From contig CAVQEQ010000003.1 in assembly GCA_963711565.1 (NCBI GenBank), positions 352,001-416,000 on the forward strand: a stretch of DNA of 64,000 bases, read 5' to 3'. Source of the stretch: an uncultured delta proteobacterium. Its GTDB lineage: Bacteria > Desulfobacterota > Binatia > Binatales > Binataceae. How positions within the stretch are numbered: position 1 is the first letter of the stretch; each line of letters begins with the position of its first letter. The notes under the pieces were generated by a model that was not told the DNA's origin, did not search any database, and saw nothing but the letters and a program-made list of their open reading frames with translations. Of the stretch, positions 5,357 through 42,925 are shown piece after piece. Both the position numbers and the translations under genes were made by a program.

Positions 5357-5394
5357 CCTCACCCCTAGCCCCTCTCCCTTCAGCAGAGGGGAAT
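5357..5394. repeat. Isolated REP-like unit related to the 41.2-42.3 kb repeats
   Basis: CCTCACCCCTAGCCCCTCT...AGAGGGGAA resembles CCTAACCCCTGACCCCTTCCCC...GGGGAAGGGGAA at 41817. Confidence 0.5.
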
Positions 5395-35650: not shown

Positions 35651-37213
35651 ATGCTGGCAGCGGCGGTCGGGATAAGCGTCACACCCGCCGCAGCGCAAAC
35701 CCCATTGAGCATGCTATGCGTCTCGCCCGATATCACCGTCGCTCTGAGCAGCAGAACCGTCACACCCCAGCAGGTGCAATGTTACTCGTTTCCTTCCGGC
35801 ACGGCTTCGAAGAGCTTTGCCGGTATTCCGGCGGGCGTGAACGTGACCGGGTACTTCCCGCTGAGTGCGACGCAGACCCTGCTCACGATCGACACCACCG
35901 CCGCACTGCCGACCAACGGTACCGGTGGGATCGTAACCGTAACTCCGCACGATGTGGCGTCGTACAATCCGTCAACCGGCTTTTTCTCGTCATCGCTTTA
36001 CTTCGCGGGCGCGAGCAACAGCATTCCCGACGGGACGCAGATCGACGCACTCGGGATGGACACCGCAGGAGACCTGCTGCTCTCGTTCGACGTGACCATA
36101 GCCGTCCCCAAATCCGGCGGCGGGACGATAACCGTCAACCCGGCAGACTTGGTCTCGTTCACAGGCGGTGTTTATACGCTGGTTTTCAACAGTGCCGTGG
36201 CCGGCATCCCCGATGGAACAAATCTCGAGGGCGCTACGATGCTGCCTAACACCGACCTGTTGCTCACCTTCGATGTGATCGGCTCGATCGACGGAATTGA
36301 TTTCACGCCGACCAACGTCCTGGAGTTCAATTCCGGCGCCAACAGTTGGGTGCTGTCATTCAGTGGCGCCTCGAGCGACGAATGGCCGGACGGCAGCTTG
36401 TTCCAGGGAGTATGGGCCGCAGCAGCCCCCACGCCCACTGCGACGCCAACGCGGACAGCGACGCCAACCGCCACTGCGACTTCAAAGGCGAGCGCGACGC
36501 GGACGCCGACTGCGACCACGACGCATACCGCGACACGGACTGCGACGCCCACCGCCACGGCGACCGCGACCAAGACGCCAACAGCGACCGCGACCAGGAC
36601 CGCGACGGCCACAGCGACTGCTTCGGCAACTCGGACTGCCACCGCGACGGCAACGGCCACAACGTCCACCGCGACCGCGACGCGGACATCTACGCCGACT
36701 GCAACTGCGACGTCCACAACTCCGACTGCAAGCGCAACGCCGACCAAGACCGCCACTGCGACTGCGACGCCGACTGCGACGGGGACCACCGCGGCGACTC
36801 CAACTGCAACTGCCACGCTAACCGCCACAGCTACTGCAACCGCGACTGCCACTTCAGCCACGACCACCGCGACGCCAACGCCAGTGCCGATTGTACTGAA
36901 GATCAGGCCGGCGTCGCTGAAGTTCGGCACTGTGAAGGTCGGCAGTCATAAAGGAAAGAGTGTCGGCGTGACCAACCCCAAAAGCAGCAAGAAGAAGCCA
37001 GGTCTTACGGTGTTGATGGAAGGGGTCAGCGGAGTGGTCAGTCCGTACAGCGTCAGCAATGGCTGCGACGCGCCGTTGGCGCCAGGCGCGAAGTGCTCAA
37101 TCGAGGTCACTTTCGCGCCGACTGTATCGGGAGCTCAGGACGGCGCCGTGATGATAATCGACAATGCGGAAGACGCGCCGCAGACGGTGAGGCTAACGGG
37201 CAAGGGCAAATAG
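35651..37213 (+). CDS. Secreted surface protein with a long Thr/Ala/Pro linker and a basic C-terminal ASH-like domain
   Basis: D.LLSFD repeats, ~150-aa TATATPT tract, C-terminal LKFGTVKVG...CSIEVTFAPT...LTGKGK; start uncertain. Confidence 0.8.
   Translation: MLAAAVGISVTPAAAQTPLSMLCVSPDITVALSSRTVTPQQVQCYSFPSGTASKSFAGIPAGVNVTGYFPLSATQTLLTIDTTAALPTNGTGGIVTVTPHDVASYNPSTGFFSSSLYFAGASNSIPDGTQIDALGMDTAGDLLLSFDVTIAVPKSGGGTITVNPADLVSFTGGVYTLVFNSAVAGIPDGTNLEGATMLPNTDLLLTFDVIGSIDGIDFTPTNVLEFNSGANSWVLSFSGASSDEWPDGSLFQGVWAAAAPTPTATPTRTATPTATATSKASATRTPTATTTHTATRTATPTATATATKTPTATATRTATATATASATRTATATATATTSTATATRTSTPTATATSTTPTASATPTKTATATATPTATGTTAATPTATATLTATATATATATSATTTATPTPVPIVLKIRPASLKFGTVKVGSHKGKSVGVTNPKSSKKKPGLTVLMEGVSGVVSPYSVSNGCDAPLAPGAKCSIEVTFAPTVSGAQDGAVMIIDNAEDAPQTVRLTGKGK
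36428..36880 (+). repeat. Degenerate ACNGCN coding tandem repeat (Thr-Ala linker)
   Basis: Visible low-complexity tract; shorter equivalents near 11820-11900 and 16405-16480. Confidence 0.85.
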
Positions 37214-39245: not shown

Positions 39246-39520
39246 TGGGATCCTGGGGAATTAGATTTGATCTGTTGGCATTCGGCTACTCCTCCATCAC
39301 CTTCACCACCACCATCGAAGCGCCCGGATTCTCCCGAGCCCGCAGCACCGAATGATGGTCAAAGCTGACAGGCTTGCACGCGGCGATCAACCCTGTTGGC
39401 GCTCGCCGAAGCAATGCATCTCGCAATCTGTCGTCATCGACACGCGCGCGCTTTTCGGCGACGCGGTAAATGTGCAAGGATTCGGATCAAGCGGAAAGAT
39501 TTCCTCAAAGGAGCTCAGTA

Positions 39521-41212
39521 ATGGCGAAAGCTGACGGTGGAGAATTAATCGCGCGCGTGATGCGCGAGAATCGGGTGAAGTATTGTTTCGCGATCAACGG
39601 CGGGCATCTGTTCCCCATCCTCGGCCAGTTGCGCAATCACGACATCAAGTTGATCCACATGCGTCACGAGCAGGCCACCGCCTACGCGGCCGACGCCTAC
39701 GCGCGCACCTCGGGCGAGGTGGGAGTATGCATGGTCACCGCGGGATGCGGCCTGACCAACGCGGTGACGGGACTGTGCGTCGCGGGACTGACCAACAGCG
39801 CAGTGGTCTGCATCTCGGGACAGCATCCGAATACCGAGGATCATCTCGGCTCGTTCCAGGAGGCCTACGGCTCCGAAGTCGTCGCCAGCTTCTCCAAGTT
39901 CACCAAGCGCGTGACCGATTGGTCCACGATTCAGTTCGACCTGCGCTCCGCGTTCCGCGAGGCGATCTCGCCGCCGCAGGGCGTCGCGCTGTTCGAGATT
40001 CCGCAAAACATACTGTATCACCACGAGGAAGACGCGGGGCAGCGCAAGGGCGCGCGCGAATTCACGATCGACGACGTGCGCTCCGCGGCGGATCCCGCAA
40101 AGATCGATCGCGCGCTCGAGATGCTGGTGGCGGCCGATCGTCCAATAATCGCGTGCGGCGACGGCGTGTTCTGGTCGCAGGCGGGCCCGGAGATGCGCGA
40201 GTTCGTCGAGCTGACGAACATTCCGATCTACGCGCGCCGCGCCGGCCAGGGCGTCGTGTCCGAGGAGCATCCGCTGGCGATTCGCGGCGCGTTCAAGAAG
40301 CCGTTCACCGGCGGCGCCAACGTCGTGGTCGCCATCGGCTTCCGCTTCTGGAGCGGCGAGCATTTCGGACAGCCGCCGACCTGGACCGACAAGGCCAAGT
40401 ACATCCAGATCGATCCGACGCCGACGCGCATCGGATGGCAGGTCAACGCGGACCTGCCGATGGTCGGCGATCCGAAGATCGTGCTGCAGCAGATGATCAA
40501 ACGCATCAAGGAGCTCAAGCTCGACTTCTCGAAGAACAAGACGTCGCCGTGGGTTAAGCAGGTTTGGGAGACGCGCCAGCGCTTCGACAACACGATCAAG
40601 GAGCAGAACGCCAAGGTCGCGAAGAATCAGCCGATACATCCGGCGCGCCTGTGCGAGGACCTGATCACCGTGCTCGACAAGAACGCGACGACGGTAATCG
40701 ACAGCTTCACGCTCTCCGGATGGATGAGCCGCGCGTTCACCTGCCGCTTCATGGGCCAAGTGGTTGACGCAGGTCCGCTCGCTCCAGTCGGTCACGGCGT
40801 CGGCATGGGCATCGGCGCGCAGCTCGCGCGTCCGGGCCAGCAAGTCGTCGTTATCAGTGGCGACGGCGGATTGGGAATCGGCGGATGGGACATGGAGACG
40901 GCGGCGCGCTACAAACTGCCGGTGATCACGGTGCTGTGGAACAACAGCTCATGGGGACCTAATTTCGATCAGATGCCGGGACTGAAGGGCCGCACCGATC
41001 CGTTCAACATGCTGCCGAACATCCGTTACGACAAAATCTTCGCCGAGATGGGATGTCACGGCGAGCAGGTCGAGACCGTGGATCAGATCAAACCGGCACT
41101 GGAGCGCGCCTTCAAATCAGGCAAGCCGGCATTGATCAACGTGATCGGCGACGTCTCAGTCGGCAACGCAACTCTCGGCGGCAACCTGCTAGGCTCGACG
41201 GGCTCGAATTAG
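39521..41212 (+). CDS. Thiamine pyrophosphate-dependent enzyme (acetolactate synthase / 2-hydroxyacyl-CoA lyase-like)
   Basis: MRHEQATAYAADAYAR, GDGG...WNN TPP motif; AAGGAG RBS before ATG 39521. Confidence 0.9.
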   Translation: MAKADGGELIARVMRENRVKYCFAINGGHLFPILGQLRNHDIKLIHMRHEQATAYAADAYARTSGEVGVCMVTAGCGLTNAVTGLCVAGLTNSAVVCISGQHPNTEDHLGSFQEAYGSEVVASFSKFTKRVTDWSTIQFDLRSAFREAISPPQGVALFEIPQNILYHHEEDAGQRKGAREFTIDDVRSAADPAKIDRALEMLVAADRPIIACGDGVFWSQAGPEMREFVELTNIPIYARRAGQGVVSEEHPLAIRGAFKKPFTGGANVVVAIGFRFWSGEHFGQPPTWTDKAKYIQIDPTPTRIGWQVNADLPMVGDPKIVLQQMIKRIKELKLDFSKNKTSPWVKQVWETRQRFDNTIKEQNAKVAKNQPIHPARLCEDLITVLDKNATTVIDSFTLSGWMSRAFTCRFMGQVVDAGPLAPVGHGVGMGIGAQLARPGQQVVVISGDGGLGIGGWDMETAARYKLPVITVLWNNSSWGPNFDQMPGLKGRTDPFNMLPNIRYDKIFAEMGCHGEQVETVDQIKPALERAFKSGKPALINVIGDVSVGNATLGGNLLGSTGSN

Positions 41213-41235
41213 CAGCTAGCCTCCGAAAAATCCGG

Positions 41236-41412
41236 TCCCCCCTTTCCATTCTGGAAAGGAGGCCAGGGAGATGGGACCCGCACGAGGCTACAACGAATTC
41301 TGTTCCCCCTTTCCATTCTGGAAAGGGGGTTAGGGGGATAGGACCACCCGACCCCACAGCGTTTCTGTTCCCCTTCCCCATTCGTTCTGGGGAAGGGGCT
41401 AGGGGTTAGGGT
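41236..41412 (+). repeat. Three REP-like hairpin units (A', A, B) on the left of the DUF559 gene
   Basis: A = TTCTGTTCCCCCTTTCC-loop-GGAAAGGGGGTTAGGGGGATAGGAC (41298-41344); B = TTCTGTTCCCCTTCCCCA-loop-TGGGGAAGGGGCTAGGGGTTAGGG (41362-41412); degenerate A' at 41236-41277. Confidence 0.9.
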
Positions 41413-41929
41413 CTTGCCAGCGCAGCGCCGCTCGAATTCCGCCAATCACTGATGCCAAATCATTCCGCACCGATGCGTTCGGCACCCTCAGCACCCGGAT
41501 CCCGCGCCGTCTGAAATATTCGTCGCGCACCCCGTCGTATCCTTGTTGCCGGCGATGCGGGCTTCCATCGATCTCCACTACCAGCCGCGCAGCATGACAA
41601 TAGAAATCCAGAATGTACGGCGCGAGCACCTGCTGTCGCCTGAAATGCGCGCCCAACCGATTACCGCGAAGCTCCTGCCAGATGACGCGCTCTTCCGGAG
41701 TCATGTGTGCGCGGAGTTCTCGCGCGCGCCGGATCAGTTCCGGATCTCTCTGTTCGCTCAGAGTTAACAGTATCATCTGGTAGTGATTAGCATTGAGATG
41801 CGGCGAACGAAAGCACCCTAACCCCTGACCCCTTCCCCATAAGAATGGGGAAGGGGAACCAGAGAAAAACCGGGCGCTTCCGTCCTATCCCCCTAACCCC
41901 CTTTCCGGGGCGGAAAGGGGGAACAGAAA
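41298..41929. mobile_element. Putative REPtron/MITE-like element: DUF559 nuclease gene between ~115-bp inverted repeats
   Basis: Symmetric A>B> gene <B<A layout; no transposase and no clear target duplication. Confidence 0.55.
41399..41776 (-). CDS. DUF559 (YcjD-like, Vsr/PD-(D/E)XK fold) endonuclease
   Basis: RARELR..MTPEE..IW..LR, FRRQ, YILDFYC...RLVVEIDG..H, D..RD.....GIRVLR..N. Confidence 0.9.
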   Translation of the reverse strand: MILLTLSEQRDPELIRRARELRAHMTPEERVIWQELRGNRLGAHFRRQQVLAPYILDFYCHAARLVVEIDGSPHRRQQGYDGVRDEYFRRRGIRVLRVPNASVRNDLASVIGGIRAALRWQDPNP

Positions 41930-42258
41930 GGAGATTCGGGTTCCCCTTATCTGTTAGTCAGCGGCGTCAGATTCTCCATCGCCGGCGGGGGGAACAGGCA
42001 GGAGCTTTGGAGGATCCTTGTTCATCTTGAAAGGCTTCTAGGGAGGTGGGAGGGACACAACCTTGAAAGGGTGCTCGGCAGGTGGAACACGATTTCTGTT
42101 TCCCACTTTCCGCTTGGAAAGGGGGTGAGGAGGATAGGACAGCCCGCTCCCGATGAATTCTCTCTGTTCCCCTTCCCCATTCTCATGGGGAAGGGGCCAG
42201 GGGTTAGGGCTCCGGATCCCTCTCATCCCGCCCTTCCTTGCTCCAAGGAGGGATGAAC
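41815..42258. repeat. REP-like hairpin units on the right of the DUF559 gene (<B, <A, A>, B>, one degenerate)
   Basis: Units at 41815-41863, 41882-41929, 42093-42140 and 42161-42210; degenerate unit at 42215-42258. Confidence 0.88.
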
Positions 42259-42472
42259 TTTTCAGCCTGATCAAGCCTCGCTCGACGTGCTAAGTAATTG
42301 CTGTGGATACCGTTCATGCAAGCCGCTCTCGCTCGTCTTCGACCATCAGCGAAATCTCGCTCGAACGAATTATTAAATTTGACGGAACGAAGCTACGCTC
42401 GGTGGTGTGCCCGTCTCTGGCACACAAGTAGTGGTATAAATTGTTCCTATCTCGCCCAGCCTAATCCTCAAA

Positions 42473-42925
42473 ATGAGAGCCAAAGTTGCACTTCTAATCC
42501 TCGCCGCAGCCTTCTTTGGCTGCAAAACGGTGCCGCAATGCCCGCCCGGCAGCCGGCTCGTCGGGGATCCTCCGCCCACCGGGTCCGAAACCGCATGTGT
42601 CGAAACCGTCAACGGCGCGGACGTCAAAGAAGGGCCGTACGTGCTCTATCACGACGACGGCTCGAAAATGATGCAGGGCGAATATCACGACGGTAAACAG
42701 AACGGCGAATGGACTATGTGGTACGACAACGGCCAGAAGAAGTCGGTCGATCACTACAAGGACGGCGTGCAGGACGGCGAGCATACCGGCTGGTACACCG
42801 ACGGCAAAATTGCCGCCATCGGCATGTACAAGGACGGCAAGCCCGACGGCGTCTGGAAGCGATGGGATCCGCAGGGTTTCAAAAACTGGGAGGAGACCTA
42901 CAAAGACGGGGTCAAACTCCCATGA
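42473..42925 (+). CDS. MORN-like repeat (YwqK antitoxin family) lipoprotein
   Basis: Lipobox FFGC; repeated G.Y.DGK..G.W..WY.NG. Confidence 0.82.
   Translation: MRAKVALLILAAAFFGCKTVPQCPPGSRLVGDPPPTGSETACVETVNGADVKEGPYVLYHDDGSKMMQGEYHDGKQNGEWTMWYDNGQKKSVDHYKDGVQDGEHTGWYTDGKIAAIGMYKDGKPDGVWKRWDPQGFKNWEETYKDGVKLP

Follow-up and report, generated by a model that had tools for sequence, protein, structure and literature searches.

Stand-alone genes of the nuclease family DUF559 are framed, in genomes of several bacterial phyla, by inverted dispersed repeats that read as intrastrand-triplex motifs. This association is real, widespread and lineage-specific. The case described here is a 125-aa DUF559 gene in a stretch of 64,000 nucleotides (the window; G000:C3:352001-416000, where G000 is the genome with the window). 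The repeat class and the protein family are both known; the pairing of DUF559 with BoxC/PIT/TM repeats was not found in the literature searched, mostly openly accessible main texts. We consider it somewhat probable that gene and repeats together are a transposase-free mobile cassette, whose DUF559 nuclease is predicted to nick its own folded ends.

At the window locus the gene lies between two arms, 41298-41412 and 41815-41929, which align at 95 of 119 columns when one is inverted (Table 1). Each arm has an outer A and an inner B unit with the tails directed inward. The A pair (47 nt) is 91% identical and the B pair (49 nt) 78%; the spacer between A and B is not conserved. The left arm folds as DNA with z = -5.0, and 0 of 200 shuffles fold equally well. 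The last codons of the protein (..DPNP-stop) fall in the tail of B1. These results bear out an earlier note on this DNA, which had described a 125-aa DUF559 gene between inverted doublets, two ordered units in each arm, and the end of the gene inside unit B. A start shared by all units, also described there, fails for B2, which begins TCTGGTTCCCC, and for A3, which begins TCTGTTTCCC. The extra copies that it listed (a third A-B pair, degenerate units and a distant solo near 5357) are present, but the solo is of subtype E and not an A or B unit; the partner DUF559 clade of subtype E is found in other genomes of the genus. Contigs from four independent soil runs contain pieces of the array; none of them spans the whole stretch. 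These contigs gave no usable sign of inversion, excision or expression.

Table 1. Features of the DUF559 locus and its surroundings (positions in the window)
Feature	Position	Strand	Remark
Thiamine-pyrophosphate enzyme gene	39470-41212	+	context, outside the element; array starts just past its stop
Degenerate A unit A0	41232-41278	+	about 20 bp past the stop of the upstream gene
Unit A1	41298-41345	+	class II triplex motif by sequence; outer unit, in the arm on the gene's 3' side
Unit B1	41364-41412	+	inner triplex-type unit; tail contains the gene's last codons and stop
DUF559 gene, 125 aa	41399-41776	-	intact ORF; Vsr/EDxHD-type nuclease fold predicted
Leader between B2 and ATG	41777-41814	-	short; conserved in the clade
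Unit B2	41815-41863	-	inner unit upstream of the gene; tail directed to the start codon
Unit A2	41882-41929	-	outer unit upstream of the gene
Decayed repeat remnants	41950-42090		between A2 and A3
Third A-B doublet	42093-42210	+	A3 42093-42140, B3 42163-42210; gene-less arm copy
Degenerate terminal hairpin	42228-42252	+	
MORN_2-repeat protein gene	42473-42925	+	context, outside the element
Solo triplex-type repeat, subtype E	5357-5393	-	

DUF559 (PF04480) is the sole domain found in this intergenic ORF, and the Pfam match covers the whole domain at 102.5 bits against a cut-off of 20.6 (E 1.5e-29). The closest relatives are titled Candidatus Binatus or Binataceae; the protein scores below the YcjD equivalog cut-off (66 vs 218 bits). 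A structure model from a 44-row alignment reached pLDDT 85, and a single-sequence model (pLDDT 48) was discarded. With the 125-aa model, Foldseek retrieved 3HRL at E 6e-7 and the homing endonuclease I-Bth0305I (3R3P) at E 2e-3, ranks 2-3; the match to Vsr was weak (E 0.4-0.6). A profile search against I-Bth0305I gave E 6e-4, and the sequence searches agree with the fold matches. Enterotoxin B chains also appeared (PDB profile E 0.03-0.1) and were judged chance short-motif matches. Vsr and the stand-alone DUF559 proteins (E. coli YcjD; PDB 3HRL) are of the same family or fold group as the window protein, and a passage of PMC3424549 places Vsr, DUF559 and 3R3P in one group (group 58). Unlike Vsr, the window gene is not beside a cytosine methyltransferase.

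E29, D57, E68, D70, H74 and D81 are all present and are likely catalytic residues, their roles being assigned by comparison with Vsr and with I-Bth0305I (residues named in passages of PMC3239194). D57, E68, H74, D81 and R84 are invariant in 200 of 200 rows, a few of which are possibly one gene reached twice. Median pairwise dN/dS by DUF559 clade is 0.21 for A-B, 0.09 for C, 0.18 for E, 0.13 for F and 0.10 for D; by this ratio the A-B cassette gene is under purifying selection. Passages of PMC12817139 and PMC1189080 describe YcjD as a putative nuclease of unknown role and, within those passages, do not mention repeats alongside it. The literature passages covered report no activity of DUF559 proteins. 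In some relatives a TATAAT-like box about 8 nt before the ATG is a possible leaderless promoter; a consensus scan found no minus-strand promoter at 41777-41814 and no terminator. A profile search at the locus found no transposase of a known class in the cassette.

The repeat units were first seen as a strong hairpin with a G-rich tail. The hairpin stands; the purine tail is instead the mirror third strand of a triplex motif. Each unit consists of a pyrimidine arm, a loop, a purine arm, a 3-nt loop and a purine tail that mirrors the purine arm, at 10 of 10 positions in the A tail (T allowed for A) and 9 of 10 in the B tail. In sequence terms, A and B are class II intrastrand-triplex motifs of the BoxC/PIT/TM kind. 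Triplex-type motifs with a stem of at least 9 number 185 in G000 and 0 in one shuffled genome. In a swap test on 29 stems, where hairpins were found first and G-rich tails afterward with no mirror required for detection, tails matched the mirror of their own stem at 8.13 of 9 positions versus 6.53 ± 0.18 for swapped tails. Since the third strand varies with the stem, the swap test points to selection on DNA structure. A common variant of the motif has an extra hairpin inserted in the second loop. Identification of A and B as TMECO, whose strict pattern is CCCTCNCCC N3-6 GGGNGAGGG N3 GGGNGAGGG, was rejected, as the stems differ by inspection and the strict pattern is absent from both; a D-type unit elsewhere in G000 matches it exactly.

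BoxC/PIT/TM repeats have been known since the 1990s from hundreds of genomes and are tied to local genome instability. No enzyme or spreading route for them is on record in the accessible literature. In passages of Holder et al. (PMC4666352), BoxC/PIT/TM(ECO) repeats resemble the cassette units in having a C-rich stem, a loop, a G-rich stem, a 3-nt loop and a mirror G-rich strand, and are likewise intergenic, in inverted pairs and strain-variable in number; A and B differ from TMECO in their stems and in forming ordered A-B doublets. The same passages report triplex formation in vitro (CD, NMR) for TMECO oligonucleotides, in vivo footprinting that did not show a stable triplex, variable copy number and instability of the repeats, and a link between TM sites and small deletions for which the authors blame replication problems. 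Passive slippage or homologous recombination, the account preferred by Holder et al. (PMC4666352, same passages), can give rise to collapsed hairpins and inversions, which counts against the mobile-cassette reading. The available main text of that paper contains 0 matches for ycjD, nuclease, endonuclease or RAYT and names no partner enzyme.

A role at the level of RNA, in which the units would be 3'-end RNA structures past stop codons and the protein would bind or cut RNA, is very improbable. It would suit the enrichment of repeat loci between convergent genes in G000 (33 of 103, versus 401 of 2,213 intergenic gaps), their position right after stops, and weak Foldseek matches of the window protein to mitoribosomal proteins. 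However, the conserved purine-motif third strand cannot form in RNA according to Holder et al., who also cite an absence of terminator activity for PIT elements (both in passages of PMC4666352); solo repeats are oriented against transcription in just 22 cases versus 14, and Rfam gave no match near the gathering score.

Repeats of this type accompany DUF559 genes well beyond the window, as the earlier note's reading implies for homologs. Two sets of loci were compared: a distant set of 76 loci from the best 80 of 479 confirmed, 72 of them with enough flank, and a genus set of 109 loci, nearly all from the 150 matches listed of 221, with enough flank in 108. A triplex-type motif lies on at least one side of 55 of the 72 distant loci (from the best 80 of 479) and 93 of the 108 genus loci (among the matches listed). 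Of the same loci, 49 of 72 (best 80 of 479) and 95 of 108 (matches listed) have inverted repeats between their flanks. Distal control windows of the distant loci held the motif (strict only) in 4 of 133 and inverted repeats in 1 of 133, and these controls are lenient because they are mostly coding DNA. The pairing is also present in loci titled Proteobacteria, Bacteroidota, Planctomycetota, Patescibacteria and Verrucomicrobia, each time with other repeat letters. In E. coli K-12, ycjD has repeats of the BoxC/TM class on its 3' side only, one intact and one degenerate, which counts against the mobile-cassette reading.

Each DUF559 clade tends to have its own repeat. In a quickly built tree of 123 proteins over 104 columns, in which many forks are open, and with the repeat-type labels written after the flanks had been seen and before the tree was made, 16 of 16 members of the A-B clade (SH-aLRT 95) carry A-B and 25 of 25 members of the C clade carry C. 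Types E, D, F, G, H and I keep largely to clades of their own; the type patterns leave the flanks of some rows, among them one clade of 12 rows, unlabelled. With regard to the co-phylogeny of nuclease and repeat raised in the earlier note, the subtypes are clade-specific. Such flanks would be expected, with or without any action of the protein, from a cassette that is inherited as a unit, which counts against the mobile-cassette reading. Taken together with the many unrelated sites occupied, the possession of its own repeat type by each gene lineage suggests that the enzyme is likely to spread the repeats.

Several gene-repeat pairs coexist in G000. PF04480 matches nine times in this genome: eight of the matches are stand-alone genes, and the ninth is a domain within a frame of 1,814 codons. 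Inverted triplex-type units frame 8 of 8 stand-alone genes but not the helicase-fused one. Of the stand-alone genes three are of type A-B, three are D variants, one is C and one is H; 2 of 8 copies are broken, an A-B copy by a frameshift and a D variant by a stop. The frameshifted A-B paralog, at G000:C3:421311-421684 about 5 kb past the end of the window, is 86% identical over the first 96 residues. A fourth A-B copy (C1:17025-17363) has lost the middle of the gene, and the junction of this internal deletion (joint 41452-41733) is present in 3 of 4 sequencing runs. With rough ORF calling, strict motifs lie on both sides of 23 of 4,232 ORFs in G000. Six of the 23 are DUF559 loci; among small doubly flanked ORFs the share is 6 of 10.

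Gene-less derivatives include A-B doublets, solos, the internal-deletion copy and about 14 H-type doublets. Strict-pattern units in G000 number 23 for A, 16 for B, 46 for C, 18 for E, 8 for F, 3 for G and 42 for H, and 15 of the 16 B units are preceded by A. Among 16 paired H/G loci, 14 are H-H, namely 13 gene-less doublets and the full cassette, and the spacers of the H-H doublets (114-140 bp) are similar to the non-coding ends of the cassette. The H-type cassette lies at G000:C1:274317-274911, with about 25 other loci (e.g., C4:302600-302850), some degenerate. The 13 intact gene-less H doublets, of about 230-255 bp, are the clearest MITE-like family in G000 and the best for mapping ends. For subtypes E, F and G no cognate gene was found in the 95%-complete G000 assembly, which counts against the mobile-cassette reading. 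Tail-less 'footprint' hairpins give few clear cases in G000, which likewise counts against that reading; most 'outer-outer' rows taken for them proved to be degenerate tails or other subtypes and were set aside. A short hairpin unlike the triplex subtypes occurs in six near-identical copies with shared flanks (G000:C1:898704, C1:1119206, C3:96900, C3:229854, C3:1266036 and C4:703682) and is probably an IS end.

Repeat abundance tends to vary with presence of the gene, with clear exceptions. Within the genus, the 17 genomes with an A-B gene have a median of 7 exact A units and the 30 that lack it a median of 0 (p 4e-5 by Mann-Whitney, or 0.002 when two units per cassette are deducted); these p-values overstate the difference because kin are not independent. 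Three genomes without an A-B gene are rich in A units (G048 with 26, G009 with 18, G045 with 13) and count against the mobile-cassette reading; G051 has the gene and 0 exact A units. A second, independently drawn sample comprised 248 genomes from the class of G063, many of them MAGs, with the seed, G102 and G282 left out and the first loop of the TMECO pattern widened to 3-8. Here the motif occurs in 31 of 55 DUF559-positive versus 24 of 193 negative genomes (OR 9.1, the gene counts being at-least values and kin again not being independent). When motif-rich DUF559-negative genomes were rechecked, 4 of 5 stayed negative and one had fragments, which again counts against a mobile cassette.

The same sample bears on whether the repeats follow RAYT genes instead, the outcome that would have spoken against the earlier note's reading. 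With gene counts that are at-least values throughout, DUF559 tracks the motif better than RAYT does (OR 9.1 vs 3.5), and the DUF559 link is found within both RAYT-positive (OR 9.0) and RAYT-negative (OR 7.7) genomes. It is rather improbable that DUF559 is a captured passenger on repeats spread by a RAYT, by an IS transposase or by host recombination. G000 does contain RAYT-like genes, the weak RAYT-motif association exists across the class, repeats are found without a DUF559 gene, and other genes are occasionally bracketed (17 of 4,232 ORFs). Yet the REPs of the two RAYT-like (PF01797) genes of G000 are palindromes of their own, unrelated to the triplex repeats, the RAYT link weakens within DUF559 strata, and a passenger would leave the recurrence of the pairing across phyla, with different letters each time, unaccounted for. 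These two HUH genes lie at G000:C1:341305-341535 and C3:1344719-1344988, each flanked by its own palindromic REP.

The A-B unit is found at unrelated sites, with empty orthologous sites in relatives, as a mobile element should be. The 25 A-B loci form 18 groups by flank similarity, or 17 after L115 is merged with the window site, and the number of sites is possibly below 17, as four loci have a flank cut by a contig end. At the window site seven cassettes point one way and two (G061, G058) the other. Among 19 relatives, the window junction holds a near-complete gene in 2, a truncated gene in 1, A-type repeats only in 3, one of which (G009) has a single tail-less hairpin, and no A-B unit in 13. 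Three other junctions were compared. At two of them, what relatives have directly past the stop codon ranges from a full cassette, a doublet or a collapsed hairpin, through units of different subtypes, down to as little as 3 bp. At the third, 4 of 30 loci have an E unit. At one orthologous site a single subtype is represented by full cassettes in G007 and G004, by doublets in G000 and G045 and by single hairpins in G059 and G020. Tandem partial copies end in the loop or right arm, several possibly being of one origin.

No general target-site duplication was found: 6 of 147 loci score at least 9 versus 2.7 expected, which counts against the mobile-cassette reading. There is one possible 3-bp case; the relatives compared are about 80-93% identical, which blurs the junctions. 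In L115 (G005), the successive D-, G- and A-type units past the stop of the TPP-enzyme gene are separated by repeats of its last 15-30 bases, a single case that resembles long target duplications. IS-like elements, by their appearance, are inserted in the A-B array at the window junction in L102 (G017) and L106 (G007). Six loci (L007, L039, L063, L069, L013 and L034) have repeat-framed DUF559 in frame inside unrelated genes. The host genes include a methyltransferase (restriction-modification), a helicase, an HMGL-like protein and a phosphoribosyltransferase, and the repeats of these cassettes are translated as peptides.

A homing variant has also been considered, in which the nuclease would cut gene-less alleles (solo, doublet or collapsed hairpin), recombinational repair would copy the gene in, and the repeats would spread otherwise. 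We regard it as unlikely. I-Bth0305I is the nearest characterised relative, and the full cassettes, doublets and single hairpins of one subtype at one orthologous site are what homing would leave. As described in passages of PMC3239194 (PDB 3R3P), this EDxHD enzyme has a Vsr-like catalytic domain with equivalent acidic and histidine residues, and the selfish spread of its kind may be likened to that proposed for the DUF559 cassette. In contrast, the DUF559 protein is about half the size, lacks the N-terminal DNA-binding (NUMOD/HTH) domain, has no intron or intein host and is framed by dispersed repeats; a 125-aa, single-domain, intergenic protein was therefore not assigned to the EDxHD homing family. 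Homing also leaves unexplained the many gene-less copies at new sites and the different subtypes at the same junction in different genomes.

The protein may instead be a domesticated caretaker that clears triplex or hairpin blocks from stalled forks or has some other use for the host, with flanking repeats that regulate or merely carry the gene and spread by replication slippage and recombination. This too seems doubtful. Purifying selection on DUF559 fits such a role, as do the deletions at TM sites ascribed to replication problems and the rarity of the gene on plasmids (42 of 72,556 records, many of these megabase replicons). In the literature passages covered, ycjD lies at one site and is highly conserved in E. 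coli phylogroups A, B1 and C. Against a caretaker stand the 0 to 22 PF04480 matches per genome within one genus, the broken and internally deleted copies in G000, the many sites, the in-frame insertions into unrelated genes, and the pairing of each clade with one repeat type, for which a general caretaker would have no need.

Among known systems, the closest parallel to the favoured mobile cassette is REPIN-RAYT, in which, according to passages of bioRxiv 10.1101/2021.07.10.451892, an enzyme gene is likewise framed by inverted dispersed repeats, each enzyme lineage has one repeat type, and gene-less doublets occur. Repeats are fewer there where the gene is missing, for which the A-unit medians above, with their clear exceptions both ways, may be a parallel. 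The differences are a Vsr fold versus HUH/tyrosine chemistry, triplex-type cassette ends, and a multi-copy, many-site gene, whereas RAYTs in those passages are single-copy, vertically inherited and not self-moving. The label REPtron-like, given in the earlier note, is apt for the cognate inverted dispersed repeats only: the locus has no HUH tyrosine transposase gene, PF01797 genes lie elsewhere with other REPs, and in place of a fixed single-copy site there are three A-B copies and a deletion derivative in G000 and up to 17 sites in the genus. Given the several copies and many sites of the gene, a small mobile cassette with non-autonomous derivatives is a better description. In this it resembles an IS with MITEs, having an autonomous-looking cassette, terminal inverted repeats and shorter gene-less copies with the same ends. 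Unlike these, it lacks a transposase of any known class, and the 147 loci showed no fixed target duplication.

Movement of the cassette without a transposase is likely, because DUF559 is predicted to recognise and nick its own folded ends. When a strand is transiently single during replication, transcription or supercoiling, the units would fold into a hairpin and third strand. The DUF559 protein would then bind a folded cognate end and nick in or beside the hairpin. Host repair or recombination at the palindromic stems would copy the unit, or excise and reinsert it, mostly just past stop codons. Movement of gene-less copies would be in trans, comparable to that of REPINs through RAYT and of MITEs through an IS. 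The two orientations, the tail-less hairpins and the tandem partial copies would all follow from hairpin breaks; collapsed hairpins, inversions and partial copies can also be accounted for by passive slippage or homologous recombination. We know of no strand-joining activity for a 125-aa nuclease.

More broadly, chances are about even that this is a new class of mobile element, widespread from Binatota to E. coli, whose nuclease would read and nick triplex ends in a lineage-specific manner and so spread itself together with BoxC/PIT/TM repeats, the hairpin-looped variants included, without needing a transposase, recombinase or reverse transcriptase. If true, BoxC/PIT/TM repeats would gain their missing mobiliser, DNA would move without a transposase, and a natural protein would recognise an intrastrand triplex. 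DUF559 domains annotated inside methyltransferases, helicases and metabolic enzymes would then be insertions. To these questions the locus adds several cognate pairs in one genome, specificity at the level of clades, two orientations at one site and a RAYT-stratified test; the cognate protein-repeat pairs of G000 number five (A-B, C, D variants, H). For the common family DUF559/YcjD no function has been assigned, and its pairing with the repeats makes both questions testable.

Other features have been observed at the window junction in a relative and elsewhere in the window. In G002 this junction contains a nuclease frame of the GIY-YIG type (L112:1579-1893, 105 codons, Pfam E 4e-13), with several copies of another hairpin repeat, starting GTCATTC or GTCATCC, on its flanks. 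This repeat fills other junctions without a GIY-YIG gene, and the two are possibly a second small-nuclease-plus-repeat system. Upstream of the MORN gene, window positions 42260-42470 form a block that is conserved in many relatives, with a similar block at other loci; it is possibly another dispersed element or a promoter module. Positions 35651-37213 of the window encode a secreted-looking protein of 520 aa with a long Thr/Ala/Pro repeat region.
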